IMG/VR virus record: IMGVR_UViG_3300050120_000121
Coordinates: 1 to 64,000 of that record
Source of the DNA: a virus
DNA: 64,000 nt
Reading direction: 5' to 3' (one strand)
Position 1 is the stretch's first letter; each line of letters starts with the position of its first letter. Positions 16,436 to 37,832 of the stretch are shown here, piece after piece. The position numbers and the translations under genes were made by a program. Below the pieces are notes generated by a model. The model had not been told where the DNA came from and made no database searches. It was given only the letters and a program-made list of their open reading frames with translations.

Positions 16436-19400
16436 ATGGGAATCTTCAATAGCTGGTTCAAAGGCTCGCAAGCCAAGCCGATCATGCCGCTTCCCGCGGA
16501 ACTGCCCGCGATGAAGTCGCTGAACATGGCGTCGGCAATTCGGCCAGCCCTAGCCGGCGCTTTCCCAGGCGCGATGTGGATTTCTGACCACAGAACGGAA
16601 GCCGAGCAGAATACCGGCTGGAACCACATTGCCATCAACGCGATCTGCCAGCAATTGGCATCTGCGACCGTGACGGCATATGAAGACGGTTCGAATCAAG
16701 TTCGCAACCAATCCCGTCGCAAATCTCTGCGGAATCTCTACGGGACGATTTCAAACTACAAAGCCCAATACGGACAGGACGACGATGAAACACGACCGTT
16801 GGACAACGCTCACGCCTTGATGAAGCTGCTGCAAAAGCCGAATCCGTTTGAACCTGGTTCGATGTTTCGCTATCGGCAGGCACAACAGTTGAGACTTACT
16901 GGCACAAACTTAGTGTGGAATGTTCCAAGTCTTTTGAAGACTCCAGAGTCGCCGCAAGGCCTTCCATGTCAAAGGTATGTGGTTCCAATTGCGATGACGA
17001 CAGCGATTCTGCCATCAGAGGAAATGCCGTACGGTGGATATCGCATTATCCCGAACACGTCACGTCAATTCCTACTCGACAAGGACGGGTATCAACCGGG
17101 ATCACCGATCTGGTCATTTCTGATGGGCGTGATTATTGATGCACGGCACATTCAGAAGATTGGCTACCCTCACGGCTGGCGGTTAGATGACTTTTGGTCG
17201 CCAGTATCGGCAGGATCGAAATGGATTGACGGTGCGAACGCCGTTGATTCGTCGCGGTTCGCTCAGATGAAAAACGGTGCCGATCCATCCGTTCAAGTCG
17301 AACTTAGTCCTGGAATTAATCCGACTCAGGACGAAATGGATCGCGTCAGTGCGAAAGCGTCGAAAAAGTACGGTGGACCTGATAACGCGGGCTCGATTTG
17401 GTTCACGGAAAATGGGACTGTGATTCATCCACTTTCAACGTCTCCCAAGGACATGAACTACAAGGAAGGCTTCCAAGACTTCAAGGAAGCGATTCTAGCC
17501 TTGCACAGCACGCCTCCAACGGCTTGCGGAATCATTGACGTGGGCACAACGGCCGGCTGGCTGGCGTCGATGCGAGGCTGGTCACATGCGGCGATTAAAC
17601 CGATGTGCAGACTCTTGGCAGATTCAGACACGCATCACCTCGCCCCACAATTCGGAGAGGGGATTACGGTCGAGATTGAACCGGAAGAAATCAACGATGA
17701 GGTGGAACGGAACGCACGTTGCCAAGTCGCGATTTCAGCGAAGTCGATTTCCAAGAACACGCTGAATGCAACTCTCGGATTCAAGCTCTTGGAAGGATCA
17801 GAAGGCGACAAGTTAGCCGGTCCAGACGCTCCACAACCGGGACAAGGCGGAAATCCGACTGCGAAACCCGAATCAGGCTCATTGACTGATTTGCCAAGCC
17901 CAAGCGATCCGGGCGACGCATACTCAGGGAATGCCCGTGGCGAAACTACAAAATCACTTCAGGCAGTTCGCGACGGCATGCGGGAGGCGGACGACGAATA
18001 TATCGCGGAAGTCGTTGAGCGAGCCGTAGCGGCGAAACTGAAGTCGATGGGCGAACCATCTGCGGCACAAAGGGAAGCGGGAAACTACAAAAAGACACAT
18101 ATCACGATTCAAGGCTTGCGAATCAGCATCGAGAATCCAAAAGGGTCAATCCGCAGCGGAACGAGCCGACAGGGGCAATCATGGTCAATCGAAATGGCCA
18201 ACGACTACGGATACATCAAGGGAACCGAATCGGGGGCGGATGGCGATCATATCGACGTGTTCATTGGCCCCAATCCCGAATCAGAACTGGTGTTTATTGT
18301 CGATCAGGTGAATCCAGACTCAGGTGACTTTGACGAGCACAAGGTGATTCTCGGAAGTGATTCGAAAGCCGAAGCCAAACAAATCTACTTCGCGAACTAT
18401 TCGAAGGGATGGAAGGGATTTGGCGACATCACGCCGATGCACATTGACGACTTTAAGGAATGGCTGAAGGCGGAAGATTCTTCGAAGCCAGTTGGCGATA
18501 TTGAACCGCGAAAATCTGGTGAAAGTCGATTCATCACGTTTGACGATTTGAAACAGTTCGGCAAATCTCTCGGCATGTCCACCAGCAATGGCAGTGACGG
18601 AGGATTCACGGTTCCAGAGGAGTCACAATCGGCAATCAAGGATCGGCAGGAAATCGCAGACGGTCAAGGTTACGGAAAGTGTCCAATGTGCGGTGCGGAA
18701 GCTGTCAGCCGAAATCGCGGTATGGGCACAAACCAAAACGACACTTGCCGAAATGGACACGTCTATTTATCGGACATGACGATTGTGAACCAACCGAAAG
18801 AATCGGCAGAAGTTCCAATTGTGGAACAAAGCGTCGAACCCGCAAAACCAGCGAAGAAATCCGTCAAACGTCGGAAGCCTGTTTTGAAGCATGACGTCTC
18901 AGGCGAAAACCGAGATCACGGCAAGTTTGCGGTCACAGCAGGAAGCGGAAAGAAACCGAACGAAAATCACTTGCGAATTGAAAGCGGACACGTCGTACCG
19001 GAGAATACTCACGTTGATGTCGCGGGAACCACATACCATCCGGGAGAATTCATTCATTCGCATCAAGTGTCGTCTCTGACTCCGGAAGAACGGTCGAAGA
19101 ATACGGAATCACTCGGCGGGAAAAAGATGGAGAGAATCTATCGAAATGCCGATACGGGAGAAGGATTATCTTCAGAACATGAGGCAGAAGTTCGCGGATT
19201 AAAGATCCGACCAGACCTGAAAAACGTTACTCTGATGAAGAACGATCATGGGGAATTGAAGGGATATGGGACAGATTCGAAAGGTCGTCGCCAGCCAATT
19301 TATCCAGCAGCACACACGGAGCGAGCAAAGGCAGCGAAGTTCGAACGTCTCAAGGAATTCCAGTCATCTATCGGGAAGATTCGTGAGCGACTGGCCAGCG

Positions 19401-20080
19401 ATTTGAACAGTCCCGACGAGAAGACGCGAGAAGGGGCGTTACTAGCTCGTCTGATTGAAAAGACGGGTATGCGAGTGGGCTCGGATAAAGACACAGGGGC
19501 TGAGAAGAAGGCAACGGGGGCGACGACATTGGAGCCGCAACATGTCAAGATCGACGGCAATAAAGTGACGATGGAATTCGTTGGTAAAAGCGGACATGAC
19601 AATCATTGGGAATTGAATGATCCAGTGATTGCGAAGGCATTCAAGAATCGCATTGAACAAGGAAAATCGCGGTTGTTTTCCATAAATGACACGCAATTTA
19701 GGGATTACATGCATGATGTGGCTCCAGGATTCAAGGCAGCAAAGGATTTTCGCACGGCAGCGGCGGCGGAGCATGCAATATCTGCGGTCGATGGCATGAA
19801 AGAACCGACGACGGCAACTGAGTATCGAGAAGCGTTAGGAAAAGTCGCGGCACACGTTTCTGGCCAGATCAACAATACGCCAGATGTCGCGTTCAACTCA
19901 TACATTCCTCCCGAGGTGTTTGGACAATGGCAAGCGAACCTGCTGAGCAAGGGGATCGACGTAACGGGGTTGAAGCCCTCGTATCCCAAGGCAACGTCTA
20001 TGGTGGCACAGAGCGAATCGCCGCCGATGAAGGAAAAGATTGGTGGAAAGCAGAAGAAACCGAAGAATACAAACGCATGA
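16436..20080 (+). CDS. Portal protein fused to a pyrophosphatase-like domain, a Zn ribbon and DNA topoisomerase IB
   Basis: N-terminal HK97-type portal motifs (LLQKPNPF, LRLTGTN, KYGGPDNAG, PKDMNY); AGNYKK...IENPKGS...YGYIKGT...DGDHIDVF...FDEHKV; TopIB motifs GTDSKGRRQ, MRVG, FVGKSG, KDFRT, NNTP, SYI. Confidence 0.9.
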   Translation: MGIFNSWFKGSQAKPIMPLPAELPAMKSLNMASAIRPALAGAFPGAMWISDHRTEAEQNTGWNHIAINAICQQLASATVTAYEDGSNQVRNQSRRKSLRNLYGTISNYKAQYGQDDDETRPLDNAHALMKLLQKPNPFEPGSMFRYRQAQQLRLTGTNLVWNVPSLLKTPESPQGLPCQRYVVPIAMTTAILPSEEMPYGGYRIIPNTSRQFLLDKDGYQPGSPIWSFLMGVIIDARHIQKIGYPHGWRLDDFWSPVSAGSKWIDGANAVDSSRFAQMKNGADPSVQVELSPGINPTQDEMDRVSAKASKKYGGPDNAGSIWFTENGTVIHPLSTSPKDMNYKEGFQDFKEAILALHSTPPTACGIIDVGTTAGWLASMRGWSHAAIKPMCRLLADSDTHHLAPQFGEGITVEIEPEEINDEVERNARCQVAISAKSISKNTLNATLGFKLLEGSEGDKLAGPDAPQPGQGGNPTAKPESGSLTDLPSPSDPGDAYSGNARGETTKSLQAVRDGMREADDEYIAEVVERAVAAKLKSMGEPSAAQREAGNYKKTHITIQGLRISIENPKGSIRSGTSRQGQSWSIEMANDYGYIKGTESGADGDHIDVFIGPNPESELVFIVDQVNPDSGDFDEHKVILGSDSKAEAKQIYFANYSKGWKGFGDITPMHIDDFKEWLKAEDSSKPVGDIEPRKSGESRFITFDDLKQFGKSLGMSTSNGSDGGFTVPEESQSAIKDRQEIADGQGYGKCPMCGAEAVSRNRGMGTNQNDTCRNGHVYLSDMTIVNQPKESAEVPIVEQSVEPAKPAKKSVKRRKPVLKHDVSGENRDHGKFAVTAGSGKKPNENHLRIESGHVVPENTHVDVAGTTYHPGEFIHSHQVSSLTPEERSKNTESLGGKKMERIYRNADTGEGLSSEHEAEVRGLKIRPDLKNVTLMKNDHGELKGYGTDSKGRRQPIYPAAHTERAKAAKFERLKEFQSSIGKIRERLASDLNSPDEKTREGALLARLIEKTGMRVGSDKDTGAEKKATGATTLEPQHVKIDGNKVTMEFVGKSGHDNHWELNDPVIAKAFKNRIEQGKSRLFSINDTQFRDYMHDVAPGFKAAKDFRTAAAAEHAISAVDGMKEPTTATEYREALGKVAAHVSGQINNTPDVAFNSYIPPEVFGQWQANLLSKGIDVTGLKPSYPKATSMVAQSESPPMKEKIGGKQKKPKNTNA

Positions 20081-20754
20081 GTCCCGATGAGCAGGACGAG
20101 GCCGATGAATCGGCAGATGCCGAGAGAAATCAGGATTCCGAGAGCGATACAAAATCTCATCCAACATTGAAGTCCGAACGTTGGATAACCATCGGTGGCG
20201 ATAAAGATCCAGATGGCGACGGTGGAGGAACACACGTGAAAATCGACGACGACGGAAAGATTGTTGCGGGACCAGAAGGCTTGGCGGACAAGGGGATTCA
20301 GAAGTTGAGCGATTTCGGGAAGAATGAATCTGGCGAGTCGAAACCAGAAGAAAAACCAAAGCCAATTCCTCATGGGGAAGTTTCGTTTCGTGCGTCCGCC
20401 CCCGGTCACATGGGCGGAAAACAGCATATTGCCGAAATCACAGGTGCGGACGGACAATTTGGAATGGATCGCGATTTTGTCGACAAGAAAACCGGCAAGA
20501 AGCGAGATGAATCGGAACATACAACCAATCGACAAGGATTGTTCGAGGAGTCTGACATCACGTCGGCGGGAAAGAAAGTTCGCCATTTCGTGACACTTCA
20601 TCATCCTGAAACGGGAGTTTTAACTAAGCATCCTGTTGACAAGGAAACCGCACAGGCAATCGCGAACCATATTGGCGGAGACAACATTGAAAACGTCGTG
20701 CATTTGCGTGATGGAAAAATCCACATGACTGACGCTCCATCACGTGATTATTGA
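20077..20754 (+). CDS. Putative head-associated modular protein
   Basis: ATGA overlap with the portal; acidic leader, LKS, then RWITIGG...GTHVKIDDDGKIVAGP and an AEITGADGQFG domain. Confidence 0.65.
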   Translation: MSPDEQDEADESADAERNQDSESDTKSHPTLKSERWITIGGDKDPDGDGGGTHVKIDDDGKIVAGPEGLADKGIQKLSDFGKNESGESKPEEKPKPIPHGEVSFRASAPGHMGGKQHIAEITGADGQFGMDRDFVDKKTGKKRDESEHTTNRQGLFEESDITSAGKKVRHFVTLHHPETGVLTKHPVDKETAQAIANHIGGDNIENVVHLRDGKIHMTDAPSRDY

Positions 20755-20779
20755 TTCTTCTCAAGAATCTTTTCCAAAC

Positions 20780-20881
20780 TGACGAAGATATTATTGACAA
20801 TTAAAGTTAATTGATTACAATATCTTCGTCATGACTGCTGTGCGAAGCAGTCGAACTCAAACTCTTGCGAAGGAATGAATC
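20780..20881 (+). promoter_or_regulatory. Sigma70-type promoter inside a palindromic operator, followed by a leader hairpin
   Basis: TTGACA (20794)-16-TACAAT (20816); inverted repeat tgacgaagatatt/aatatcttcgtca; hairpin gactgct-gtgcga-agcagtc. Confidence 0.75.
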
Positions 20882-21136
20882 ATGTCGAACGCAACCGACC
20901 ACACGGCAATCAGTATCTCGATGGATGGCATATGGGCTGGAAGCGGCAAGTTGAGAGACGGCCAGATCGAAGATTGCGGGGCGCAATTCTGCGACGACAA
21001 CGACGAATCGCTCGAAGTCTATGAGATGATCGAAGACGCCATTGAGAACGGCGAAGACGAAGTTCGCGTCACGCTCGATGGCGAAGATCATACGATTACT
21101 TGGACGATCGTTGAACCGAGCATCGTGTCCGAATAA
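20882..21136 (+). CDS. Very acidic small protein
   Basis: 84 aa, about 22 D/E versus 3 K/R; AAGGA RBS. Confidence 0.75.
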   Translation: MSNATDHTAISISMDGIWAGSGKLRDGQIEDCGAQFCDDNDESLEVYEMIEDAIENGEDEVRVTLDGEDHTITWTIVEPSIVSE

Positions 21137-21150
21137 TCGCGAGGCTCCAA

Positions 21151-21495
21151 ATGTCGAATCATTGTGCAGAATGCTGGTATGAGATCTCCGAAAACTACGG
21201 TCGATGTGAAAAGTGCCATCAGAATGCGAAAGCAGTGATTTCCGAGAGGATGTCTCATGCCAGCGAGATCGGCGAAAAGTCGGAAGATCTCGCGATTCGC
21301 TTCACCTGCGAAATGAACGTCTTTTTCACTCAGATTCCCGAGACGGATGTTATGGTCGCTCGATTGCGTCAAGGCAGTGAGTTGATTCGTCAGATGATTG
21401 CTCGGTCGAAACTGACAAAGCATCAGTCGCAATACGTTTCCGCGATCGACCGAGTTGCGAATCGGGTGGCTCCCATGAATGAAGGAACAAAATGA
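21151..21495 (+). CDS. Zn-ribbon hypothetical protein
   Basis: CAEC...CEKC. Confidence 0.6.
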   Translation: MSNHCAECWYEISENYGRCEKCHQNAKAVISERMSHASEIGEKSEDLAIRFTCEMNVFFTQIPETDVMVARLRQGSELIRQMIARSKLTKHQSQYVSAIDRVANRVAPMNEGTK

Positions 21496-21836
21496 GCGAA
21501 CACGCTTTCACCTGTCCAAAGTGTGGCAGTCATTATTTCGGAACCGAAACGGAGAAGCGTCTAGGTAAAGTCGTCATTCTCGACACCGTCAAATGCCACG
21601 GGAAAGACTTCAGCGGAAAGATGTGCGACTGGCGAGGAGTTCATGGTCGCATTCACAAGGGTCAGACGACTGTTCCGTTCGGCTTGCGAATCAGCGAGGA
21701 ACTGTGCTCAAAGTTGCATGCGTCAACAACAGCCACGGAGCCAACAGCACAAGCTGTCGCGATTAAAATCCTGTCCGCCAGTATTGGCGTTGAATACATG
21801 CATCGAAGCGTTGGCAAACCTGCGAAATCAACTTGA
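21492..21836 (+). CDS. Zn-ribbon plus ribbon-helix-helix-like protein
   Basis: CPKCG N-terminus; Arc/MetJ-like segment VPFGLRISEELCSKL. Confidence 0.5.
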   Translation: MSEHAFTCPKCGSHYFGTETEKRLGKVVILDTVKCHGKDFSGKMCDWRGVHGRIHKGQTTVPFGLRISEELCSKLHASTTATEPTAQAVAIKILSASIGVEYMHRSVGKPAKST

Positions 21837-21943
21837 CGCTGACGATTGGCGGATCTGCCGTTATAGGCTTTGCCTACCAATTGCGTCCCCGTCCGAATCC
21901 GTGGGCAGGATTTTGAATTGGTGGGCAAGCGTCGTAAATCGTC

Positions 21944-22462
21944 CTATTCCGTGACTGGCGATTCGATAGGTTGTGGGCCGCTTGGCATAAATCTTGATTT
22001 AAATAGCGGCAACGTTAACGGAGGAAGCCCCATTTGAGACGTTGTCAAAAACATGAAATGCCGCACATAGGGCCAGAGCGTATTCATGGCGACTGCCGTA
22101 GCCAACTCGCCGTTCTCCGTGGTTGACTCATGGCTTGGAGACTGTCCAGCAGCGTGGATGTAAACCGCTTGGTATTCGCATTGCAACAACACTGCTGGCT
22201 CATCGTCTGAATCTTCATACGTAGTCGTAGCCTGACATGACACATTGATCTTGATCGTGTTTTCCTCAGGTGACAGGCCGATATTCGAGCCGACGTTAAG
22301 TTTTGTCTTTCCGGGAAACGCTCCTCCGCGAAGATTCAATTTGGAGGCTGAAGATGTCAACCTCACAATTTGCAATTCAAGATTGGCGAACGAGAACGGC
22401 ACCGCTTGGACGGTGGCAAGTTTTTTCGATCGCGATTTCGACTTTCGTGCAGCTTTCTTCAT
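21944..22462 (-). CDS. SecB-like chaperone of a TAC system
   Basis: SecB signature LWPYVRHFMFLTTSQMGLPPLTLP; ATG 22462 overlaps the antitoxin stop. Confidence 0.85.
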   Translation of the reverse strand: MKKAARKSKSRSKKLATVQAVPFSFANLELQIVRLTSSASKLNLRGGAFPGKTKLNVGSNIGLSPEENTIKINVSCQATTTYEDSDDEPAVLLQCEYQAVYIHAAGQSPSHESTTENGELATAVAMNTLWPYVRHFMFLTTSQMGLPPLTLPLFKSRFMPSGPQPIESPVTE

Positions 22463-22884
22463 GGTTGCATCGTAATAGGATTGAATTTCTTGAAACCGCA
22501 GGTGCTGGAAGTTGACGGGACATTGCTGGCATCCCAAGAGAGAGACCATGCGACATCGGACCCATCATTTCCTGTTGGAATGGGATCAAATGCTGGCTTG
22601 TCATACAACTCAACTCGCAGCCGTTTTCCAAGGGCGGCGGCTATCTTTTTGAGTACGCGCATGGAGTGACTGCCATAGTCGGCATCCTCGATTCTCGCGA
22701 TTACGCTTTGATACGTGCCAGCCAGATCGGCCAATTGTTTTTGTGTTAACCGAGCCGCGTTTCTGGCGCGATAGATCTCTCTGGCGGTATGTGCATCTAC
22801 GGCTGCATCTTCAACCATCGCTGCCAATTCTGGATTGTCAGCGAGTTTTTTCCGTATGACGGTGCCAAAGTCAGTTGTTTTCAT
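22459..22884 (-). CDS. higA: XRE-HTH antitoxin (HigA-like) with C-terminal chaperone-addiction-like extension
   Basis: LTQKQLADLAGTYQSVIARIE...LKKIAAALGKRL followed by a tail of about 45 aa containing DVAWSLSWD. Confidence 0.85.
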   Translation of the reverse strand: MKTTDFGTVIRKKLADNPELAAMVEDAAVDAHTAREIYRARNAARLTQKQLADLAGTYQSVIARIEDADYGSHSMRVLKKIAAALGKRLRVELYDKPAFDPIPTGNDGSDVAWSLSWDASNVPSTSSTCGFKKFNPITMQP

Positions 22885-23287
22885 CGTCTTCAACATTTCC
22901 GTTTACGAGTGTCCAGTCCGCGAGGTATGTAGATGGATCATGTTCGACCAATTTCATCCTCGCAACAGCTTTCGCGATGTCCTTCGGTGGAACTCTGTCT
23001 GTCTGCTTGATGATCCCGTGTGAAAGGCAAATGACATTCCGGCCTTGAAAAAAATACAAAACGCGGTAATGGATTTTTCGTTCTTTTGCTCGAACCTCGT
23101 AAATTCCTTGCTCAAGAGTACCGGACTGTGGACGCTCTGCTTCGTATCCGAGTTGTTCTACATATTGAATCGCGGCGAGCATTTTCGCATATGCCAACGG
23201 GACTTTGCGCTCAAGCACTTCGAGCCATATTTCTACGGGGATTTCACCGTTCTTTTCTCGAAATACTTTGAGCGTCGCTTTAGGCAT
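22871..23287 (-). CDS. higB: RelE/HigB-family toxin (Gp49/DUF891-like)
   Basis: PVEIWL...GIYEVR...YRVLYFF...LSHGIIKQT..VP..DI. Confidence 0.88.
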   Translation of the reverse strand: MPKATLKVFREKNGEIPVEIWLEVLERKVPLAYAKMLAAIQYVEQLGYEAERPQSGTLEQGIYEVRAKERKIHYRVLYFFQGRNVICLSHGIIKQTDRVPPKDIAKAVARMKLVEHDPSTYLADWTLVNGNVEDDENN

Positions 23288-23416
23288 TCTAGGTCCGCAA
23301 TCGCATTTTTGCTATGTCCTTCTCGGATTTCAAGAAGACGCATAAAAATGATGGTGGTTTGTAACGATACAATCGTCAGGAGTGGAATACCACGATTGAC
23401 GTGGCATTCGCGATAC

Positions 23417-23457
23417 AAAAAAACACGGGAATCGCCACCAAAAGACCGTTCCCGTGT
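23417..23457 (-). terminator. Terminator between transposase remnant and TAC operon
   Basis: Stem acacggga...tcccgtgt with an A-run on the left (U-run on the minus strand). Confidence 0.55.
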
Positions 23458-23484
23458 CCTCTGAATTGCAGTCGTACATTGGCT

Positions 23485-25466: not shown

Positions 25467-25644
25467 TGGTCCGCCGGGAGGATTGCCAAAAGCGTCACCG
25501 ATTGAACGGACATTCGGAATTCTGTTGATGATCGTTCTAATCGTCCTATTTTCTCTCGGCATGGGCATCGCGTATAAACGGGATGTCCTCGATCAGAATC
25601 CAGACAAACCTTGGACGGTGAATCCCGATGTCAGAACTCCCTAA
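25459..25644 (+). CDS. Single-TM small protein
   Basis: FGILLMIVLIVLFSLGMGIAY. Confidence 0.5.
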   Translation: MLNGPPGGLPKASPIERTFGILLMIVLIVLFSLGMGIAYKRDVLDQNPDKPWTVNPDVRTP

Positions 25645-28219
25645 TCGTGAAGATTTGGAATCTCAATTCGCCAAGAGATTCGGCAAGCTCGCAAGACGAC
25701 ATTTAAGGGAGTTTCGCAGACTTCTCGGAGATCCTCCAGACTTGAGTAATGTCCCTCCTGAGTTTTGGGACAAAATGCAGAGGGAAACCGACGCAGAACT
25801 GTACGCGATCCTACTGCTGATCTTCGATGAATCCGCGATCTATCACGGATGGGACACTGCCGAGTCAGGATTAGCGGCATACGGCTGGGCGAAACAACGG
25901 GCTGAAGATTTCTCCAAGTATTGGGTTGAGTCGACACAGACGCGATTGGCGAACGGATTTGACAAGCTCACGACACCAGAACCAGTTCGCGAAACGACCG
26001 TAGCCGAAGCACGAGCAGCGGCGGGCATGGGCGGAACTGGAAGTCGCAATCGAACAACTGGTGGCGATGAGGATGAACCGTTCGAACCCGTCAACCGAAT
26101 CCTGCCAGGACAACAGCCAGTCAAGATCCCATCGAAGCAAGAGATTGACGAACTACTGAAGGATACGTTTGGCGAGAATCGAATAGAAACCAACGTGATT
26201 GACGAAACCACGAGGGCACGTCACGCAGGCGGCGAAGCGGCCATTGAAGAGACGGTTGGCATCTCGCAGGATGATCGCTGGCGAAACAATCCGCAGGACA
26301 GCAAATCAGGTCCGTGCCCGATCTGCACAAAACTGAATGGATTGAGAAGAGCCGATTGGCCGTGGCGATATCGTGAAGGACCGCCGTCACCTCACCCGAG
26401 ATGTTGCTGTACCGTCGATCATGCGCTGGTCCCGCTCTCCGACGCCATCGGTCGCATGTTGGACGATCCAGACTACAAAAGCCTGAAAGCGTTCAACGAG
26501 GCGGAATCGAGAGACGAAGGCGGAAAATGGACGAGCGGCGGTTCAACTGCTTCGGGGAAAGTAAATCTCGAAAAGATTCATGATCCGAGAGTTGTCAATC
26601 GCGTTCATCAAACATTGTCCGATCTTCACGACCGATTCGGATTGAAACTCGACAGCGTTGAAGCAAAGCATCTTGACGAGAATATATTCGGCAACGCCGA
26701 GTCGGCACACATGCTCACGCTTCAATCGGGGCGAGAAAAGAACGGAAAGCGGGTATGGGAAAACTCTCACCATTTAACGCTGAATTCGGATCATTGGCAG
26801 GACGGTGAATCGTTCAACAAAAAGCGTCACGAATTGCCAGATGGATACCTCGCGGATTCATCGGCAACCGGCATGATTCGACACGAGTACGCTCACGCAT
26901 TGGAAAAAGAGCATCCTGAAGACGCAGCGAAGATCCAAGAGATTTATCGACAGTACAAGCCGACTGGCGGAACCGTCAGCGGATATTCGATTCACAGTTC
27001 AAAAGAGATGGTCGCAGAAGGATTTGCTCATTGGATGCAGCAGGGATCGCTAGCAGGAACCGGATTAGACGCATTGGAACCGATTTTCAGAAGTTGGGAG
27101 AAAAATGAGCACACTGCAAAAGGAATTGGAAGTTATTCAAGTCGAACACAGATTGCGGACCGAATCGCGACTGGAGATAGAGCTTCTAAGGATTCTGCTG
27201 AGGCAGGCGACGGCATGTCGAATTACGCATCGCGACAAATGGAGAATGCAAGAGATATTTCAAGAGGTTCCTCGATTGGCGAATCAATATGGAATCGAGA
27301 TGGTGAACGCGAAGGAACTGGCCTGACTCCGCGATTCAACCTCAAGTCATGGTATCGTGTCATCCCAAACGCAGCGGAATGGCGAGCGTATTGCCGAGAG
27401 AACGAACTGGATGTGAATAACCGACTGGCATTTAAAAGTTGGTCCATGAAATCGCATGATGTCTCAGGCGAATCACGAGACGATCGCGGCAGATGGACCG
27501 TCAGCGGAAGTCGTGTCATCACCCCAAATGGCGAAAAGCATTCGTTTCACAATAGCCCAGAAGACGCTCAACAAATCGCGGACTACGAAAACAACCGAAT
27601 CGACAGCAAGCCGCTCATCGCGGAATCCAATCGGTTGCTTCGCGAACTAGGGCACCCTCCCGTCGCATCCTTCGACAAGCACGGAAATCCGACAATCCAT
27701 CCTGATGAGATCAGAGACGCGATTCATCAAGCGAATGAGGCCAACGAACTTCTGAAAGATCATCCGAATGTTCCAAAAGCGAAGGTCTCTGTAGTAGATG
27801 ACATGCCATCGAGCAGTCATGATCCAGCACAAATCAAGGAATCGCTGGAAGAGTTAAAGAAAATCAACAGCATCCTCGCAAAACATGGCCAACAGAAAAT
27901 CGGATTGTCACACGACGCTGATTTCGGCGGTGTGTTTCCAGATGTGACAGACGGCAACACGGCAGAGGATGTGACGGAACTAGATCGCGAATCCGCGAAA
28001 TTGAATAAGCGACTTGAAAGCTACGGGCTGAATCCAAAGGTTCACATCAAATTGACGAAAAGCGACGGGAGCCACGAAATCGGATTGTCACATGATCCTG
28101 ACGAATTGAGCGAGGCTCTTGATATGCTTCGAGACTTCAAGAACAAGAAAAGCTTATTGCCGGAATGGATCGTCAAGGAATTGGAGCCGTTTGGGTTCCG
28201 ATCACACTCCATTAGCTGA
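25628..28219 (+). CDS. MuF/SPP1-gp7-like head morphogenesis protein fused to an HExxH metallopeptidase and an unknown C-terminal domain
   Basis: MuF motifs ETTRA, CPICTKLNG, PPSPHPRCCC; zincin motifs IRHEYAHALE...SGYS...EMVAEGF. Confidence 0.85.
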   Translation: MSELPNREDLESQFAKRFGKLARRHLREFRRLLGDPPDLSNVPPEFWDKMQRETDAELYAILLLIFDESAIYHGWDTAESGLAAYGWAKQRAEDFSKYWVESTQTRLANGFDKLTTPEPVRETTVAEARAAAGMGGTGSRNRTTGGDEDEPFEPVNRILPGQQPVKIPSKQEIDELLKDTFGENRIETNVIDETTRARHAGGEAAIEETVGISQDDRWRNNPQDSKSGPCPICTKLNGLRRADWPWRYREGPPSPHPRCCCTVDHALVPLSDAIGRMLDDPDYKSLKAFNEAESRDEGGKWTSGGSTASGKVNLEKIHDPRVVNRVHQTLSDLHDRFGLKLDSVEAKHLDENIFGNAESAHMLTLQSGREKNGKRVWENSHHLTLNSDHWQDGESFNKKRHELPDGYLADSSATGMIRHEYAHALEKEHPEDAAKIQEIYRQYKPTGGTVSGYSIHSSKEMVAEGFAHWMQQGSLAGTGLDALEPIFRSWEKNEHTAKGIGSYSSRTQIADRIATGDRASKDSAEAGDGMSNYASRQMENARDISRGSSIGESIWNRDGEREGTGLTPRFNLKSWYRVIPNAAEWRAYCRENELDVNNRLAFKSWSMKSHDVSGESRDDRGRWTVSGSRVITPNGEKHSFHNSPEDAQQIADYENNRIDSKPLIAESNRLLRELGHPPVASFDKHGNPTIHPDEIRDAIHQANEANELLKDHPNVPKAKVSVVDDMPSSSHDPAQIKESLEELKKINSILAKHGQQKIGLSHDADFGGVFPDVTDGNTAEDVTELDRESAKLNKRLESYGLNPKVHIKLTKSDGSHEIGLSHDPDELSEALDMLRDFKNKKSLLPEWIVKELEPFGFRSHSIS

Positions 28220-29914: not shown

Positions 29915-29917
29915 ATC

Positions 29918-30913: not shown

Positions 30914-31271
30914 AAAAGAACAAACCGAGATGGAAGTGCTCAGAAGCGAGTTGGCAAAAGCAAAGGCGTTCCGATTCACGGAAAGGATAAAGCCAGACAT
31001 CCCAATTGCGAGCGGATATACAGATCTGAGGAAAGGTTTTCTATTCAACGAGCATTCGTCATACGAACAGGTCAAGCCAGCATGCTCTACGAGCAGTAAC
31101 CATTGTTTCGGAAGCGACCAGAAGACGACGACGCAGGGCGGAAGGTCGCTTTTCAGCACAGAAGTTCTGGCATGGCGTGCTCTCCGAAATGCATTGGAGG
31201 ACAGTTTTGCGGAACGGCTGGCGAAAATAGACGAGAGGATTCATGATCTTTATGAGAAAGGGAGCAAATGA
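30900..31271 (+). CDS. Hypothetical phage protein
   Basis: RBS aaagga; QGGRSLFST...ALR. Confidence 0.6.
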   Translation: MAMNKKEQTEMEVLRSELAKAKAFRFTERIKPDIPIASGYTDLRKGFLFNEHSSYEQVKPACSTSSNHCFGSDQKTTTQGGRSLFSTEVLAWRALRNALEDSFAERLAKIDERIHDLYEKGSK

Positions 31272-31549
31272 GCGATCTGAGCAGCAGAAACGAACGAGCA
31301 TTCCGCGAGCATGACAAATGGTTGATGAGCGGTCCTCCCGAATGGGAATTGCCAGATCCCCCGAAGTTCGACGACAGCGACAGCGTTCAATTGCCAGACG
31401 GTCGCATAGGCTCGATTATCGAAATCGGCGGAAGCGATCTTGTCGGATATACGTATCACATCGAAGTCGAGGACATGATCGGCGAACCACCGAACCACGA
31501 ATTGCAATGGTTCTTGGAACCCGAATTGAAGAAACCGGAAATCTCGTGA
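31268..31549 (+). CDS. SH3-like hypothetical protein
   Basis: VQLPDGRIGSIIEI...YHIEV. Confidence 0.55.
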   Translation: MSDLSSRNERAFREHDKWLMSGPPEWELPDPPKFDDSDSVQLPDGRIGSIIEIGGSDLVGYTYHIEVEDMIGEPPNHELQWFLEPELKKPEIS

Positions 31550-31608
31550 TCCGAATCATCTCGGGACACGTTCAGAAGTGCGTGACGTATTTTCTTTAAC
31601 TTGGAGGA

Positions 31609-31953
31609 ATGATTTTGGACATCAACAGTTTGACAGTCGGACAACTGAAGGAAATCAACAGGCTGATATCGGGTGGAGTATCGGACTCACATCAGCCCTA
31701 CGAAATCGGTGCGAACTACCTGATTCGCACAGTCACATTTGCCTATACGGGAAAGATCGTATCGGTCGGAAACTCGGAGATCGTTCTTGTCGATGCCGCG
31801 TGGATTGCTGATACGGGGCGATTCGCGGATGCCGTGACGAAAGGATCGTTCAACGAAGTCGAACCGTTTCCAGACGGAGAGAACGTCATCATTGGACGAA
31901 GCACGGTGATTGACGCGGTTAAAATCAAGACATTGCCAAGGAGCCAAAAATGA
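31609..31953 (+). CDS. Sm/SH3-like beta-barrel phage protein
   Basis: YEIGANYLIRTVTFAYTGKIV...LVDAAWIADTGRF; GGAGG RBS. Confidence 0.75.
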   Translation: MILDINSLTVGQLKEINRLISGGVSDSHQPYEIGANYLIRTVTFAYTGKIVSVGNSEIVLVDAAWIADTGRFADAVTKGSFNEVEPFPDGENVIIGRSTVIDAVKIKTLPRSQK

Positions 31954-32189
31954 TCTGCGTCTCGCGACGGGGACTCGACGTTGGATATTACGGGTCAGGG
32001 TCAGGGTCACGGTCAGGGTCATGGTCAGGGTCACGGTCATGGTCAGGGTCAGGGTCATGGTCAGGGTCACGGTCATGGTCAGGGTCAGGGTCATGGTCAG
32101 GGTCACGGTCATGGTCAGGGTCAGGGTCAGGGTCACGGTCAGGGTCATGGTCAGGGTCAGGGTCACGGTCATGGTCAGGGTCACGGTGA
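31950..32189 (+). CDS. Ser-Gly/Arg/Trp repeat peptide
   Basis: ATGA overlap and AGGAG RBS; stop directly after the repeat. Confidence 0.65.
31992..32183. repeat. 32 x 6-bp repeat NGGTCA
   Basis: N is only G, C or T. Confidence 0.95.
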
Positions 32190-32248
32190 AGAGAAACATG
32201 CCAAACGCCGCGGTTCGCGGCATTTGGCATTCAATACGAAAGGAAATC

Positions 32249-33169
32249 ATGTCACAGAAATTCATTGCAGCGAAACGCGGGGCATTCAATGGCTGGTTTG
32301 GCGTGATCTACGAATACGACGCATCCGGCAACACGGAAGTGCGAATCTGGTCATCGCCGACGAATCGCGACAAGAAAGAACAGGCGATCGACGACGCGAC
32401 CGAGAAAGCACGTAAGATTCTTCTAGATGCCATCGGCGGAATCCATCACGTAGTTTCAATCACGATGCAACCGAACTTCCTCAAAGTCGCGACCGACGAG
32501 GCGTTTGAGAGTTTCCTCGCCGGATGTGATCTAACCAATCGACAGGCAGAACAACTGGAAAAAGCACGCACGGAAAAGGAAGCTGCCGACAAGATCGAGG
32601 CGAAACGATTAGCCGATGAAAAGACCGCTCAAGACTTGAAGGACGCAGAAGCCCGCGAAACACAACGCAAGGCCGACGACGAACAAAGGGCCGCGTTGAA
32701 AAAGCAGGCCGACGAACTCGCCACGAAACAGGCGGAACTCGACAAACAAGCTGCGGACCAGAAAGCAGAAGCCGCCAAAATCGCCGCCGATCAAAAGTCA
32801 GCACAAGACAAGATCGACTCAGCCAACAAAAAGATTGCCGACGATCTAGCCGCAGTCGAGCAAAAGAAACTCGACGACATTGAAACTGCAAAACGAGAAA
32901 CCTACGACGGGAATCCACGGTTCGCATGGCGATTTGAAAAGCCTACGAAACCGGCAGCAGATAGCCCCTTCAAATCACTGGCACCGTTCGCGACATACTC
33001 GTTTACTCACAAAACATCGGAAGGCAAGTTCGACTTCTCGTTCAAGAAGGAAACAGGCGATACCGTCAACTTCCAGATGGATCGCGAAGAAACCGTCCGC
33101 CTTCACGAATGCCTGACGCGGATTCTGGCATCAGACGCGGCGAATTCTATGAGCGGGGATCAATCGTGA
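32249..33169 (+). CDS. Protein with a long Ala/Lys/Glu coiled coil
   Basis: AAAGGA RBS before MSQKF. Confidence 0.65.
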
Positions 33170-33459
33170 AACACGTTCCGACATTGACGAAAGTTCCCGA
33201 AGTTCTCATGTCGCTGCCGTGGCAGAAGATCAGCGAATATGCTCACGAGCACTACACGCAGATCAGTGACGGTGATCGACTGCTGGTTGCTGTCCCGTTC
33301 TACGAAAGCGTCGACGGGAAATTCACTGACGAATGGCGATACGATATCGCAACAATCAAAATCAGTTTCGGCGACTGCAGAATCAGCAGCGTCGTCATCG
33401 GCAATGAATATGACTTTGACTGCGAATTCTCCGACTGCGATTGGTTTGTAAAACTCTGA
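33166..33459 (+). CDS. Hypothetical protein
   Basis: GTGA overlap. Confidence 0.5.
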   Translation: MKHVPTLTKVPEVLMSLPWQKISEYAHEHYTQISDGDRLLVAVPFYESVDGKFTDEWRYDIATIKISFGDCRISSVVIGNEYDFDCEFSDCDWFVKL

Positions 33460-33488
33460 AAGGACAACAATGCCTGAAAGGGTCAGCG

Positions 33489-33728
33489 ATGATTGAACGA
33501 GAGTTATTGCAGGACATTGGCTTTCAACGTGGAGCCGGGGATTGGCCATGTGAAGTGTGGGTCTACGAAGGAATGTTTTGGGTCTGGTTCGGTGACATCC
33601 CCGATTCGGCAAGATTTGATTTGACAACAATTGATGGCAGATCTGTGACACGGGAAGAATTCTTTAATGTCTTCATCGAAGCGGTCAAGGATGAGCAGCG
33701 TGATTTGTGCAGTCCTGGATCATGGTAG
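33489..33728 (+). CDS. Hypothetical protein
   Basis: Part of the operon chain. Confidence 0.5.
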   Translation: MIERELLQDIGFQRGAGDWPCEVWVYEGMFWVWFGDIPDSARFDLTTIDGRSVTREEFFNVFIEAVKDEQRDLCSPGSW

Positions 33729-33748
33729 TCAGCCTGAAAGGAACCCGA

Positions 33749-34138
33749 ATGATTGTTCGAATCTTCTGTTGTGGCTGTCAGGTAGATGTGTTACCGGCGC
33801 TAACTGACGGCAGAGAAATCTATCCGCATCGTTCGGATTTGCACGATCTACCGTTTTGGAAATGAGATGCCTGCGGAAACTACGTTGGCTGTCATCACAA
33901 GACGAACACGCCGACAAAACCGCTTGGCAACATCCCGACACCGGAAATCAGAACGTTGCGAATGCGAATCCATGCGATCATCGACCCGGAGTGGAAATCA
34001 GGTAAATTGACGCGCGGACAGGTCTATCGAAGGCTGGCGAAAGCGTTACATCTGAAATCATTCCACACGAGCGACATCAGTACTGCGGAACAGGCGTTTT
34101 GCGTGCTCAAGACGGCGAATGAGATTTTCGTGATCTAA
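33749..34138 (+). pseudogene. DUF3268-like zinc-finger gene with an in-frame TGA at 33863
   Basis: MIVRIFCCGC...IYPHRSDL...FWK*DACGNYVGCH...PLG...H..IDPEWK; the stop sits at a CxxC cysteine position. Confidence 0.75.
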
Positions 34139-34197
34139 CCAAGTTGATTCCGCGTTGTTGCGGATGTGTCGAGTGAACCTTTTTTGGAGATTTTCGA

Positions 34198-34500
34198 ATG
34201 TCAGGACAGATCGAATTGGGCGACGAAGTGGAAGATGTTGTCACCGGATTCCGTGGTATCACAACCTGTAAGACGGACTACCTGAATGGATGTGCGAAAT
34301 TCGGAGTACAGCCGAAGCAAGGAAAAGACGGCAAGATGCCTGAGACATGGCATATTGACGAACCACAATTAAAAGTCGTCAAAAAGTCGAGCGTGAAGCC
34401 GGGAATCACGATTCCTCCAGCGACTCCGAAGAATCCCAATCCACAACCAGTTCGCACGGGAGGACCATCAATTCGCGGATCGAGCCTGAATCAGCGATAG
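34198..34500 (+). CDS. SH3-like phage protein
   Basis: IELGDEVEDVVTGFRGI...YLNGC...VQP. Confidence 0.7.
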   Translation: MSGQIELGDEVEDVVTGFRGITTCKTDYLNGCAKFGVQPKQGKDGKMPETWHIDEPQLKVVKKSSVKPGITIPPATPKNPNPQPVRTGGPSIRGSSLNQR

Positions 34501-34558
34501 ACAACTTTGGAACCGCTGCCCGCGTCACAAACCAGTGACCGACACGAAAACCAAGTTT

Positions 34559-34590
34559 GCCCTGTGCATTGATTTGCACGGGGCTTTCTC
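34559..34590 (+). terminator. Probable intrinsic terminator
   Basis: Stem gccctgtgca...tgcacgggc followed by T-rich tail. Confidence 0.5.
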
Positions 34591-34686
34591 ATTTATGGTT
34601 GCAAATCATGCGTTTCACATTTCCAGTTGCCAAGTTACGGCAAGTTTGCGATAACAAAACGCATCTGACAGATTAAACCTGCAAGG

Positions 34687-34908
34687 ATGCGGAAAATGCT
34701 CGTGAAAGATTCACCACAAGGGAAGCCGAAGCGACGTTGGATTCCGTACTACAAGCTGAACGTCGATTGCAACTGCCCTGACTGCCACGTTCCATGTATT
34801 GTCGGGAAAGTGCTTACCGGGACAGACGGAAAGCCAGTGCAGCATCGTTACTGCCCGAATTGCACGTTCAGTTTGAAGGTTCCTCTTCCCGCGTCTGAAG
34901 CCAAATAG
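34687..34908 (+). CDS. Zn-ribbon protein upstream of the head operon (possible regulator)
   Basis: CPDC...RYCPNC. Confidence 0.55.
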   Translation: MRKMLVKDSPQGKPKRRWIPYYKLNVDCNCPDCHVPCIVGKVLTGTDGKPVQHRYCPNCTFSLKVPLPASEAK

Positions 34909-34990
34909 ACCGCCGAATCGTATTAACGTTTGTACGTTTTCGCTCTGTTGGCATTCCGCGTATCTTGCCGTGTCCGTCTAATCGTCCCGC

Positions 34991-36430
34991 ATGGACGCAT
35001 CTGTCAATCAAGTCGACGCTTCGGATCGGTATCGCGAGAATCGCGGAATCGGTTGGCAGTATCGCTTGAAAGACCTGAATGGGGCGTTGCTCGGCGGCGG
35101 GTTGGCATACGACACCGTTTCTGGCAATCCCAATGTCGACCGCACTCGAATGTCAGCAACGGCAACAATCAGTGATGCCACCATTGACAGAGTTGGCGAC
35201 GTTTTGCTTCCGCAAGGATGTGTTCTGGATGATTATCGACGAAATCCGGTATGTCTGTGGAACCACGGCCTAGACCACTCGGTTCCGTTCGCCATCGGAA
35301 AAGCAGAAGACGAAAACGGAAATCTCGCAATTCAGATCACCGAAACGGAAGTCATCGGGACAACCTATTTCGCAAAAAGTAATCCGATCGCGGTTCAAAT
35401 TTTCCAGTTGATTGACGAAGGGGTTATTAAAGCCGTCTCAGTCCGCGAAACACCGCTTGAGCAGAAGCAAATCTTTCGCAACGGTCAGAACGTAACTCTT
35501 GTTCCACGGTGGACATTGGAAGAATTCAGTTGGACGAATGTAGGAGTGAATCCTTCTGCTGTTCGAAAAACTCTCTCTCGAAATCGACTCGACGGCAAAC
35601 CGATCCTTGAACCGATTTACAAATCACTGACCGCAACACTTCCTCAGAAACCAGCAACATCCCACGGCGGATTTGTGGAGCAACCAGCAATGGCCAGCAA
35701 ACTGAAGTCTGAAGATTCTGAGATGGATGACGATGACACCACGAAAACCGCAGCGGAAACGCCTGCCGATGAAAAGCCGAACGACGGCGAAAAGCCAGCG
35801 GAAGCATCGGAAGACAAGCCAAAAGAAAATCCCGACGACGTGATGAAAGACGACGAACCCAAAGTGGGCGATCCAAATGAGGACGCAAAATTGGGACGGC
35901 AAGCAATTGGCTATGTCGATGATGGTTGCAAGTCGCTTCGCGGGACGATTCGCTCTTGCTGCAAGTCGATGGAAGAACCCGATGTAAAAGCCCATCTCGA
36001 AGCACTTCATGACACTCTCGGCGAGCATAGCACGGCACTTCAAGGTCTACGTCAAGAAAAATACCCGATGTCCAGCGTCTTGAAAGATGAGGACATGGGC
36101 GGTGGGGACGAGTCTGGTGGCGAAGACGAGGGCGGTGGCGACTCCGATTCAGCGATGAAGTCGATGTTGGCAACGTTCAGTATAAAGCGACATGGATTCG
36201 GTGGTTGCGTTGAACATGTCAAGGATGTTCTGAGGACTTGCAAGAGTCTGTCCGCCGACGAAAAACGAAAGTTGAATATTGCCATCGACGGCTTTACGAA
36301 GATCAAGTCGCAGGCCAAGTCACTCTACGAAGAATCATTGAAACGCGACACAAAAACCGAAAAGAAACCCGCGATTACCTCCGCTCAACAGGCCGAAATT
36401 GACGCCGCGTTTGCTCTGCTGAAGTCTTAA
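34991..36430 (+). CDS. HK97-family prohead protease with long C-terminal scaffold-like extension
   Basis: DRVGDVL, NPVCLWNH, IG, AVSV, LEEFSW..VGVNPSA. Confidence 0.9.
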   Translation: MDASVNQVDASDRYRENRGIGWQYRLKDLNGALLGGGLAYDTVSGNPNVDRTRMSATATISDATIDRVGDVLLPQGCVLDDYRRNPVCLWNHGLDHSVPFAIGKAEDENGNLAIQITETEVIGTTYFAKSNPIAVQIFQLIDEGVIKAVSVRETPLEQKQIFRNGQNVTLVPRWTLEEFSWTNVGVNPSAVRKTLSRNRLDGKPILEPIYKSLTATLPQKPATSHGGFVEQPAMASKLKSEDSEMDDDDTTKTAAETPADEKPNDGEKPAEASEDKPKENPDDVMKDDEPKVGDPNEDAKLGRQAIGYVDDGCKSLRGTIRSCCKSMEEPDVKAHLEALHDTLGEHSTALQGLRQEKYPMSSVLKDEDMGGGDESGGEDEGGGDSDSAMKSMLATFSIKRHGFGGCVEHVKDVLRTCKSLSADEKRKLNIAIDGFTKIKSQAKSLYEESLKRDTKTEKKPAITSAQQAEIDAAFALLKS

Positions 36431-36488
36431 ATTCGTGGCCGAATGGCCAGATGTCCGGTCCACGATCTCTGTTCAAGGATTGAATGAA

Positions 36489-37832
36489 ATGCCAACTGTT
36501 GAAGAACTCGTTGCCGAAACGAAAAAGACTGTTGCCGAACGCGATTCCGTCAAGGCTGAATTGAAATCGCTGAAGGACAAACTCAGTTCGACGGTCGATC
36601 CATCCTTGATCCATCGCGATGCAAGCGGTGCGTCGGCTGGCGGATGGGAAGAATCCGATGACGAACTGACGGCGGTTGTCGGTCGCGATGACTTGCGGGG
36701 AGTTCCGAAGCTCGAACGCCGATCGAGTGCGAAGTCAGTTATCAAGTCGCTCGTCAAGCAGGGCTACAAGCCGTATGGCGAGTTCAAGAGCTTTGGCGAA
36801 TTCATCAAGTTCGGCGTTGAAAACCGCGACTACAAAAACAAGATCGAAACTCGCGTTGGCGACCATTTCAAATCGGTCAGCAAGGCGATTCAGGGGATGA
36901 CGACCACTGACGGTTCCGATGGCGGATTCGCGGTCATGCCGGAATTCAGCAAGAACATCCTGGAGCGTTCATTCGACAACAATCTGTGGAATGAAACCGA
37001 CTCCTACACCGTCAGCGGAAACTCGATGACGTTTTTGGCCTCGGCTGAAATAAGCCGGGCTAACGGAAGTCGTCACGGCGGTCTGCAAGGCTTCTGGCAG
37101 GGTGAAGGTGGGGCTGGAACCAAGAGCAAGCCAACCATTCGCGAAGTCAATTTGAAGCTGGGCAAAATCATCATAATCGTCTACTTGACGAATGAACTGC
37201 TGGCGGACAACGCCTACGCTCTCGAACAGTACGTGACTCGCAAGGCAGGGGACGAAATCAAGTTCTTGCAAGGCGACTCGCTCATCAACGGCATCAGTTC
37301 TGGCGGTCAGCCGATGGGTTGGATCAATTCGCCGAATCTGGTCTCGGTGGCGAAGGAAGTCGGTCAGGACGCGAAAACGATTCAGACGATCAACGTCGAA
37401 AATATGTACTCGCGGTTCTTCGCTCCGATGCTTCCGAAAGCCAAGTGGTATCACCATCAGGACATTCAGCCACAACTCGACACGATGACTTTGGGTCTCG
37501 GTTTGGGACAGGTGCCGGTCTACCTGCCGCCCGGTGGGATGTCGGAAGCTCCATACGGGATGCTGAAGGGCCGGGCAATGCAGCCGACGGAATTCAATGC
37601 AACGTTGGGAACGCAGGGTGACTTGATGCTGGCGGACATGAGCCAAATGCTGTCCATCAGCAAGGGCGGAATTCAGCAGGCCGTTTCGATGCACGTTGAA
37701 TTCTTGACCGACCAACTGGCCATGCGGTTCACTCTGCGATGCGGTGCTCGTCCTTGGGAAAACACTCCGCTGACGCCATACAAGGGCACAAATAGTCAGT
37801 CGAGTTGTATCGCTTTGGACTCGCGAGCCTGA
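36489..37832 (+). CDS. Major capsid protein (HK97 fold) with N-terminal delta domain
   Basis: GSDGGFAVMPEFS, WQGEG, LTNELLAD, LING...PMG, GDLMLAD, FLTDQLAMRF. Confidence 0.95.
   Translation: MPTVEELVAETKKTVAERDSVKAELKSLKDKLSSTVDPSLIHRDASGASAGGWEESDDELTAVVGRDDLRGVPKLERRSSAKSVIKSLVKQGYKPYGEFKSFGEFIKFGVENRDYKNKIETRVGDHFKSVSKAIQGMTTTDGSDGGFAVMPEFSKNILERSFDNNLWNETDSYTVSGNSMTFLASAEISRANGSRHGGLQGFWQGEGGAGTKSKPTIREVNLKLGKIIIIVYLTNELLADNAYALEQYVTRKAGDEIKFLQGDSLINGISSGGQPMGWINSPNLVSVAKEVGQDAKTIQTINVENMYSRFFAPMLPKAKWYHHQDIQPQLDTMTLGLGLGQVPVYLPPGGMSEAPYGMLKGRAMQPTEFNATLGTQGDLMLADMSQMLSISKGGIQQAVSMHVEFLTDQLAMRFTLRCGARPWENTPLTPYKGTNSQSSCIALDSRA

Follow-up and report, generated by a model that had tools for sequence, protein, structure and literature searches.

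We analysed the first 64 kb (64,000 bases; the window) of a 99,904-base virus record, IMGVR_UViG_3300050120_000121, which is estimated to be 83% complete. The source is an uncultured phage of about 100 kb and the stretch is its head module, in which the portal protein and a MuF-like head protein are each extended into a polyprotein carrying unrelated enzyme modules. We lean, if only slightly, towards reading these two proteins as polyvalent head cargo that is cut by a prohead protease of the HK97/T4 fold. The window joins three elements in one phage family: a site consisting of Lys followed by Ser, Ala or Thr (K↓S/A/T, where the arrow marks the predicted cut), a protease of known fold with substrates of its own that bear this site, and a widespread junction peptide that we call the header. 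The architecture, the fold of the protease, and the conservation and statistics of the sites and of the header are direct results of the analysis. A sequence-only reading of the window had proposed such release of cargo enzymes inside the head, on the basis of clustered Lys-Ser (KS) dipeptides and the recurring header, and all of the strings and counts that it quoted were found in place. Its interpretation is partly supported by comparison with relatives, since K↓S/A/T is conserved in capsid and protease and K↓S or K↓A recurs at the portal and MuF junctions of related phages. The four genes concerned are as follows.

16436..20080, + strand: portal polyprotein, 1214 aa, with portal, InPase, Zn-ribbon and type IB topoisomerase (Topo IB) regions (Pfam)
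25628..28219, + strand: MuF-like polyprotein, 863 aa; homologues of 211-482 aa in six relatives cover aa 1-268
34991..36430, + strand: prohead protease with scaffold-like extension, 479 aa (AlphaFold2 model, phrog_80)
36435..37832, + strand: major capsid protein, 465 aa, with delta domain aa 1-150 and mature part aa 151-465 (PF05065 from aa 163)

Cut-site signature of the prohead protease and capsid protein

The prohead protease consists of a protease domain (aa 45-205) followed by a 270-aa scaffold-like extension containing nine KS dipeptides. It matches phrog_80 ('head maturation protease') at E 7e-6, but no Pfam family at E<=0.01, the S78 and U35 families included, and a search of PDB sequences with its profile gave no matches. 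Relatives of the protease-scaffold protein at 30-50% identity number 47, of which 25 were aligned with the window protein. An AlphaFold2 model based on this 26-sequence alignment has a pLDDT of ~90 for aa 45-220, beyond which lie an acidic disordered stretch and helical hairpins. The closest structure among 48,161 chains compared with VIA-align is T4 gp21 (5jbl_A; Z 9.9, root-mean-square deviation 3.2 Å over 128 aa, model residues 46-184). The same chain is again the top match when Foldseek is run against the pdb, at E 0.08, with no match at E<=0.001. Residues H92 and S150, spaced 58 apart, are invariant in all 26 homologues. As modelled, the domain has the prohead serine protease fold of HK97 gp4, T4 gp21 and herpes assemblin, and it is predicted to be catalytic.

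KS occurs ten times in the protease against 2.8 expected, a count that was reached in none of 500 shuffles; nine of the ten lie from aa 211 onward and the protein ends in LLKS. The homologues behave likewise, with shuffle p<0.05 in 21/26 and at least 1.9 times the expected KS in 23/26, and within the C-terminal extension KS ranks first of all 400 dipeptides family-wide (166 vs 61 expected). The capsid protein contains six KS where 2.8 are expected (p=0.04), five before aa 150 and one after. KS is also the top-ranked dipeptide in the delta domains of its homologues (79 vs 29 expected), whereas in their mature parts both KS (8 vs 21 expected) and KT (9 vs 23 expected) are depleted, which fits avoidance of the cut site in the part of the capsid that is retained. 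The clustering of KS in regions expected to be removed, as originally noticed, is therefore borne out for both proteins. The codons used are varied (AAR followed by TCN or AGY), so the signal lies at the protein level; a by-product of a repeated DNA word was considered and rejected on the same grounds. Enrichment in discarded parts, depletion in the retained part and invariant positions in otherwise variable sequence are together the signature that would be expected of protease sites. One conserved site from each of the two proteins is listed here.

35615..35635, + strand: IYK↓SLTA, candidate self-cleavage site ending the protease domain; K211-S212-L213 invariant in 26/26 homologues
36879..36947, + strand: SK↓AIQGM..GSDGGFAVMPEF, predicted capsid maturation site K150↓A151 and N-arm; K↓A, K↓S or K↓T in 24/25

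K211↓S212 is likely to be the self-cleavage site of the protease. Further along, K390-[SA] is kept in 25/26 homologues and K443-[SA] in 17/26, while the surrounding sequence varies. In the capsid protein, the Phage_capsid domain (PF05065, 76.8 bits) begins at aa 163 and is preceded by a 150-aa N-terminal delta part of coiled-coil-like sequence, which identifies it at the sequence level as an HK97-fold major capsid protein with a delta domain. A set of 57 related viral loci supplied 24 capsid homologues, which were aligned with the window capsid (25 sequences). In this alignment the column directly ahead of the conserved N-arm (QGMS..G.DGG) shows K↓A in 17, K↓S in five and K↓T in two sequences, and the likely maturation site in the window is K150↓A151 (nt 36882-36887). 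This lies four residues after K146-S147, the pair that had been proposed from the sequence alone and that we have replaced with the conserved one. The capsid and protease alignments both show the pattern of a site under selection, with Lys conserved ahead of Ser, Ala or Thr.

The N-terminus of the protease shows a separate likeness. Residues 6-41 (window 35006-35113, RENRGIGWQYRLKD) resemble aa 379-416 of a 662-aa open reading frame (ORF) at 45381-47369 (segment 46515-46628, RENAGFTWMERLKE; E 0.018 in an all-against-all search). An N-R-G-x-x-W-x-Y..K pattern is also N-terminal in the protease homologue of L018 (L018, L020, L027, L029 and L041 are labels of the related viral loci used for comparison), and the family consensus retains R..G..Y..K. 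Judged by this resemblance, the segment may be a second shared docking or processing motif.

Polyprotein junctions and the header peptide

Pfam places Phage_portal (aa 111-436), InPase (PF18823, aa 544-678) and Topoisom_I (aa 964-1149) within one uninterrupted ORF. The header takes the form HDVSGE.RD..G(R/K)W or K-[SA]-F-N-P..-RD..GRW. Its core pattern, RD.{1,2}G[KR][WF], occurs three times in the six frames of the window, and a header profile finds the same three copies and no others in the whole 99.9-kb record, so that pattern and profile searches put all three where they had first been seen. One stands in the portal polyprotein and two in the MuF-like polyprotein, among the following junctions and modules.

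16508..16525, + strand: candidate N-terminal portal site AMK↓SLN (K27↓S28); K↓S or K↓T in 5/7 portals covering the column
18035..18061, + strand: portal-to-InPase junction KLK↓SMGEPS (K536↓S537); KLK↓SL in L018, RLK↓A plus header in L027
18065..18469, + strand: InPase domain, a polyvalent-protein pyrophosphatase (PF18823, E 8e-56, 188 bits vs cut-off 26.8)
18560..18622, + strand: GK↓SLGMS..GSDGGFTVPEE (K710↓S711), copy of the capsid site and N-arm start (local alignment with capsid aa 76-178, E 0.001)
18680..18760, + strand: CPMC...C..GH zinc ribbon, conserved in L018
18884..18928, + strand: header 1, LK↓HDVSGENRDHGKF (K818↓H819), ahead of Topo IB (header pattern and profile)
19325..19882, + strand: topoisomerase IB catalytic core (PF01028, E 2e-25)
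26483..26533, + strand: header 2, LK↓AFNEAESRDEGGKWT (K287↓A288), after the MuF domain; conserved in L018 (SLK↓AFN..GKWT)
26882..26896, + strand: HEYAH motif of a putative zincin module (~aa 305-500), read directly
27341..27433, + strand: LK↓SWYR...AEWRAYC...RLAF element (K573↓S574); LK↓AWYR at the extreme C-terminus of the L018 MuF protein
27446..27499, + strand: header 3, MK↓SHDVSGESRDDRGRWT (K608↓S609), ahead of an unassigned C-terminal module at 27500-28216 (header pattern and profile)

The same junctions in relatives keep K↓S or K↓A, while the modules behind them vary: InPase or ART, Topo IB or zincin, zincin or GNAT. At the portal-to-InPase column, RLK↓A of the L027 portal is followed directly by a header (FDPSQPRDDDGKWT), and the unfused portals of other relatives end near this column. 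The capsid-site copy after InPase is kept in L018; in its place L027 has KKK↓S and a header, giving a portal in which header, ART-PolyVal, header and an unassigned module follow one another. At the third junction, a variant header precedes a zincin (ATLF/Peptidase_Mx) in L018 where the window header precedes Topo IB. Other C-terminal portal extensions contain QK↓SM in L020, AK↓TM in L041 and AK↓SH in L029, with 2H-like domains behind the first two.

The 863-aa MuF-like protein scores 15.4 bits with Phage_Mu_F (PF04233), below the cut-off of 29.6, but matches the C-terminal part of phrog_2662 at E 5e-6, and its counterparts in relatives match phrog_115 and phrog_8089 (minor head and head morphogenesis proteins). 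The module behind header 2 contains HEYAH and is zincin-like in the window, and is a GNAT in L018. This putative zincin has no Pfam match at E<=1; its neighbours in the Atlas include peptidase clusters at TM 0.3-0.56, which serve as a lead only. The C-terminal module, aa 625-863, matches no Pfam or PHROG family. Two further observations concern the MuF-like protein. The family phrog_2662 ('portal protein', 717 positions) matches the window portal over its first 493 positions (16436-17990) and the N-terminal part of the MuF-like protein over positions 602-709 (25628-26497); portal and MuF are therefore one protein in members of that family and two in the window. An element of ~31 aa, LK[SA]WYR..P.AAEWRAYC, is common to the MuF-like proteins of the window and L018 (L018:4103-5548) despite their differing enzyme modules, and from its sequence may be an anchor piece.

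Beyond this phage family, a DNA pattern for DV[ST]GE.RD..G[KR]W matches 16 viral contigs against ~0.2 expected by chance, and in these the header follows MuF and precedes GNAT and ART domains. A profile of 31 columns was then built from 24 copies and searched against 1.84 billion representative proteins from public genomes and metagenomes, matching 1,229 protein clusters at E<=0.001 and 199 at E<=1e-10. The best 150 header proteins have a median length of ~1,290 aa and carry 2-11 copies each at a median spacing of 242 aa, i.e. one module per header. The N-terminal 60 residues of 80 of the 150 include a header, which is preceded by a short amphipathic leader. The predominant form is K-[YF]-[DNS]-P-x-[QE]-P-R-D-x-x-G-R-W-T, a 15-residue motif in which R and G are invariant and W nearly so. 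Topo IB, zincins, GNAT, ART and unassigned domains are found behind it. In homologues the header is, on sequence comparison, tied to domain borders and has differing modules behind it, an outcome on which the sequence-only reading had staked its case. The header falls outside all Pfam and PHROG models, PMC5512222 and PMC5576092 make no mention of the motif, and a literature search with the motif string gave irrelevant matches only.

Module swapping through DNA homology between headers, which had also been suggested, fared less well. The identity of 17/18 nt between 18890-18907 and 27455-27472 is exact and covers six identical residues, but given codon usage it has P ~0.03, and it ends abruptly on both sides with no extension. 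We do not take it as a sign of recent exchange, and it is too short and statistically too weak to suggest that DNA identity drives swapping, although the modules behind the header do differ among relatives.

All eight headers in the window's protease family are directly preceded by Lys. In the profile sample, 48% of copies have Lys immediately ahead of the aromatic residue and 20% have it one position earlier, against a background of 5.5%; both figures are biased upward by the presence of some K in the profile itself. In a sample collected with the DNA pattern, which holds no upstream residues, Lys is at -1 in 26% and at -2 in 17% of 120 non-identical copies. The residue is consistent within proteins: among 98 with at least three classified headers, Lys precedes all headers in 61, none in 29 and some in eight, where random mixing would predict ~20, 2 and 76, respectively. 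Proteins without Lys use a consistent residue of their own, namely A, L/M, E or G. Such usage is as expected if this position is P1 and its residue suits the protease of the phage concerned. Stand-alone header proteins, such as gp14 of Mycobacterium phage Predator, start M-[SA]-F-N-P. Removal of Met from such proteins would give the same N-terminus as a cut after Lys.

Cultured phages with a header include Predator, whose gp14 starts MSFNPRQPRDRLGRW, and Nocardia phage P3.1, whose protein QSL67859 starts MARRKFNPRQPRDLRGRW. Both proteins (L078:3998-4759 and L079:3495-4205) are annotated as head or capsid maturation proteases. They are very basic, ~240-250 aa long and header-initial, and adjoin a metallopeptidase gene and, in Predator, also MuF; the maturation-protease annotation may need checking. 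A further protein, P0092 (760 aa), combines several header copies with a Peptidase_S78_2 (XkdF-type prohead protease) domain at aa 536-659, and a header and a head protease can therefore share one polypeptide.

Proposed processing and alternative explanations

In the mechanism that we propose, the portal and MuF-like proteins would be 'polyvalent' fusions that bring enzymes into the capsid, and the protease would cut after Lys if Ser, Ala or Thr follows, the next residue usually being hydrophobic. The protease would remove the capsid delta domain at K150↓A151, cleave its own chain at K211↓S212 and at additional positions along the scaffold-like tail, and trim the portal N-terminus at K27↓S28. 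Cuts at K536↓S537, K710↓S711 and K818↓H819 would free the C-terminal load of the portal (InPase, a Zn-ribbon piece and Topo IB, 12 copies each per head), and cuts at K287↓A288, K573↓S574 and K608↓S609 in the MuF-like protein would yield the zincin and the unassigned module. The new N-terminus made by each cut would carry the header (the capsid N-arm copy in one case), so that the header could be viewed as a 'cut here, then N-terminal tag' element. Its role might be in recognition by the protease on the P' side, or as a signal holding or ejecting the cargo.

Several observations weigh against this mechanism. Every cleavage, and the delivery of the pieces into the host, is inferred from sequence rather than observed. 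KS is not significantly in excess in either polyprotein taken alone (portal, 10 vs 7.1 expected, p=0.15; MuF, 7 vs 4.4 expected, p=0.14). The tail genes show no excess either, and the enrichment stands for the protease and capsid only. Portal linkers total 375 aa and contain six KS, whereas the 839 aa of portal domains contain four, a roughly threefold difference in density that is absent when K[SAT] pairs are pooled. The N-terminal region of the portal itself contains conserved K-[SA] pairs (RRK↓S and YK↓A), so such a pair cannot always be a site, and the portal header follows K↓H, not K↓S/A. Only 43% of the 120 unbiased header copies have Lys at -1 or -2. The protease and capsid homologues are mutually related and their counts are not independent; likewise, repeats in one protein share ancestry, which could inflate the all-or-none pattern of Lys.

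A different enzyme could be responsible. The MuF protein of the window contains the zincin-like HEYAH module (the Atlas lead), the L018 portal contains a HEIGH zincin (ATLF/Peptidase_Mx), and HExxH is present in 69 of the top 150 header proteins, far above chance. This also counts against the prohead protease, and processing of polyvalent proteins by zincins is a published proposal (Iyer et al., 2017; PMC5512222). Cleavage of the polyproteins at the header or close to it, whether it precedes or follows injection, might then be the work of embedded zincin-like metallopeptidases, and the K↓S signature of capsid and protease would be a separate matter. We regard this as unlikely: the other 81 of the 150 header proteins lack HExxH, as do the real ORFs in the visible part of the L027 head module (the contig is incomplete), which has two headers, and the zincin model does not predict that the pre-header residue should match the capsid and protease P1 in the family and be all-or-none per protein. 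That the portal and MuF fusions stay uncut, with only capsid and protease processed, we likewise think improbable. The header and its flanks would then be flexible joints kept by descent and recombination, and the proteins would act at full length as the N4 virion RNA polymerase does. Some polyvalent proteins are indeed packaged or transferred uncut (N4 vRNAP, ArdC and TraC1; PMC5512222), the lack of significant KS in portal or MuF alone is as this model would have it, and homology between the window and L018 is lost immediately behind the header, as at a recombination joint. For a plain linker, however, there is no need that 1,229 clusters share a 15-residue motif in which R and G never vary and W hardly does, nor that Lys hold a fixed register that is all-or-none per protein, and the capsid maturation site has been copied into the portal. 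Twelve 680-aa loads on the portal crown would, moreover, probably obstruct DNA packaging, which makes their release plausible.

The header could also be mainly a docking peptide, its partner during loading or ejection being the scaffold, the portal, DNA or the inside of the capsid, with the adjoining Lys incidental or serving to trim the leader only. Its position in the first 60 residues of 80/150 header proteins, after the amphipathic leader, speaks for docking, as do the stand-alone proteins that begin with it and the L027 header that stands in place of the capsid N-arm copy. Yet the portal and MuF domains reach the prohead unaided, so internal headers would be redundant as loading tags, and the fixed register to P1 together with the per-phage P1 residue suggests a link to cleavage; we give docking as the main function little credence. 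Returning to cleavage by the prohead protease, a broader form of the idea is possible but tentative: the header may serve tailed phages in general as a tag at the N-terminus of cargo, uncovered by Met removal or by a cut from whichever prohead protease is present. The preceding residue would co-evolve with that protease, and the tag would mark proteins for processing and for delivery with the DNA. If so, it would be a portable 'package, cut and inject this protein' signal behind which modules are exchangeable.

Like known polyvalent proteins, the two polyproteins fuse unrelated enzymes (InPase and a putative zincin; ART and GNAT in relatives) to portal or MuF, are encoded in the head module and have packaging and delivery as their predicted fate. 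Portal, InPase and Topo IB lie in one ORF, and the MuF-like domain, HEYAH module and unassigned module in another. Domain families defined from polyvalent proteins are present too, with InPase PF18823 in the window (family defined in PMC5512222) and ART-PolyVal in L027. Iyer et al. (PMC5512222) credited the proteolytic processing of polyvalent proteins mainly to embedded zincins, and suggested a processing role for the assemblin-like peptidases fused to some of them. The general idea of processing therefore has precedent; the site signature and the header do not, neither a cut-site signature nor a shared junction peptide being described in that paper, in which we also found no mention of a Topo IB carried on the portal. 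MuF polymorphic toxins (Jamet et al., 2017; PMC5576092) similarly combine a MuF-type N-terminal domain with variable C-terminal modules in phages; the likeness is one of domain architecture, and no junction motif or cleavage is reported in PMC5576092.

As in HK97 (gp4/gp5), the protease gene lies directly upstream of a gene for an HK97-fold capsid protein with an N-terminal delta domain, and the predicted sites have Lys at P1 and a small residue at P1'. The HK97 capsid protein is cut at K103/S104, as the sequence-only reading stated and PMC10275583 confirms, so a Lys-specific protease of this fold has precedent. Unlike that of HK97, the window protease has a 270-aa scaffold-like tail full of sites and lacks a Pfam sequence match, and the same type of site recurs in the portal and MuF cargo fusions. 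In T4, the internal proteins, Alt and proteins with a capsid-targeting sequence are loaded as cargo, trimmed by the prohead protease gp21 and injected, as also seen with head proteins of phiKZ and SPN3US. The protease fold is shared (Z 9.9 to gp21), and by analogy the header system may work similarly to T4 capsid targeting. T4, however, cuts after Glu in L/I-x-E and discards an N-terminal targeting peptide, whereas here P1 is Lys, the conserved peptide would stay with the cargo, and portal and MuF carry the cargo modules in series as polyproteins. Membership of the T4 capsid-targeting class was considered and rejected, the sites being K↓S/A/T with the conserved peptide downstream of them. Encapsulin cargo-loading peptides are alike in being short, conserved and attached to diverse enzymes bound for the interior of an HK97-fold shell; they have no sequence likeness to the header and are not linked to proteolysis.

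The presumed role of polyvalent phage proteins is to bring anti-defence and takeover enzymes into the host. From the window, a virion holding 12 pyrophosphatase and 12 type IB topoisomerase molecules is predicted. If correct, the proposed mechanism would make module borders readable by rule in giant phage proteins, of which there are thousands, and could also provide a handle for loading chosen proteins into capsids.

Gene layout and relatives

Two other genes of the head module are listed here.

10399-11949, + strand: terminase
20077..20754, + strand: 225-aa ORF overlapping the portal stop codon; LK↓SERWITIGG at nt 20167-20199 and a conserved core

The 225-aa ORF has no Pfam family and a single weak PHROG match (phrog_26647, E 0.004). 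It shares 59% identity over its core with the post-portal ORF of L027 (2588-3685). This core reads ERWITI...GGGTHVKI..DGKIVAGP.GLA..GI..LSDFGK, with K↓S or K↓A just upstream in both the window and L027, and its RW.T..GG echoes the tail of the header. In relatives, the portal, MuF, protease and capsid genes lie within ~8-12 kb, and in the window they are spread over 21 kb. Many small ORFs with no family matches, none of them with a header, separate the head genes here (20755-25627 and 28220-34990).

In a search for close relatives among cultured phages, the protease and capsid DNA had no match, P0057 had no tblastn match, and the window portal matched phage records solely through InPase. The sole named relative of the protease-scaffold protein, P0048, comes from a 7.16-Mb contig of Schlesneria sp. 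(Planctomycetes), which hints at the host range of this group of phages.

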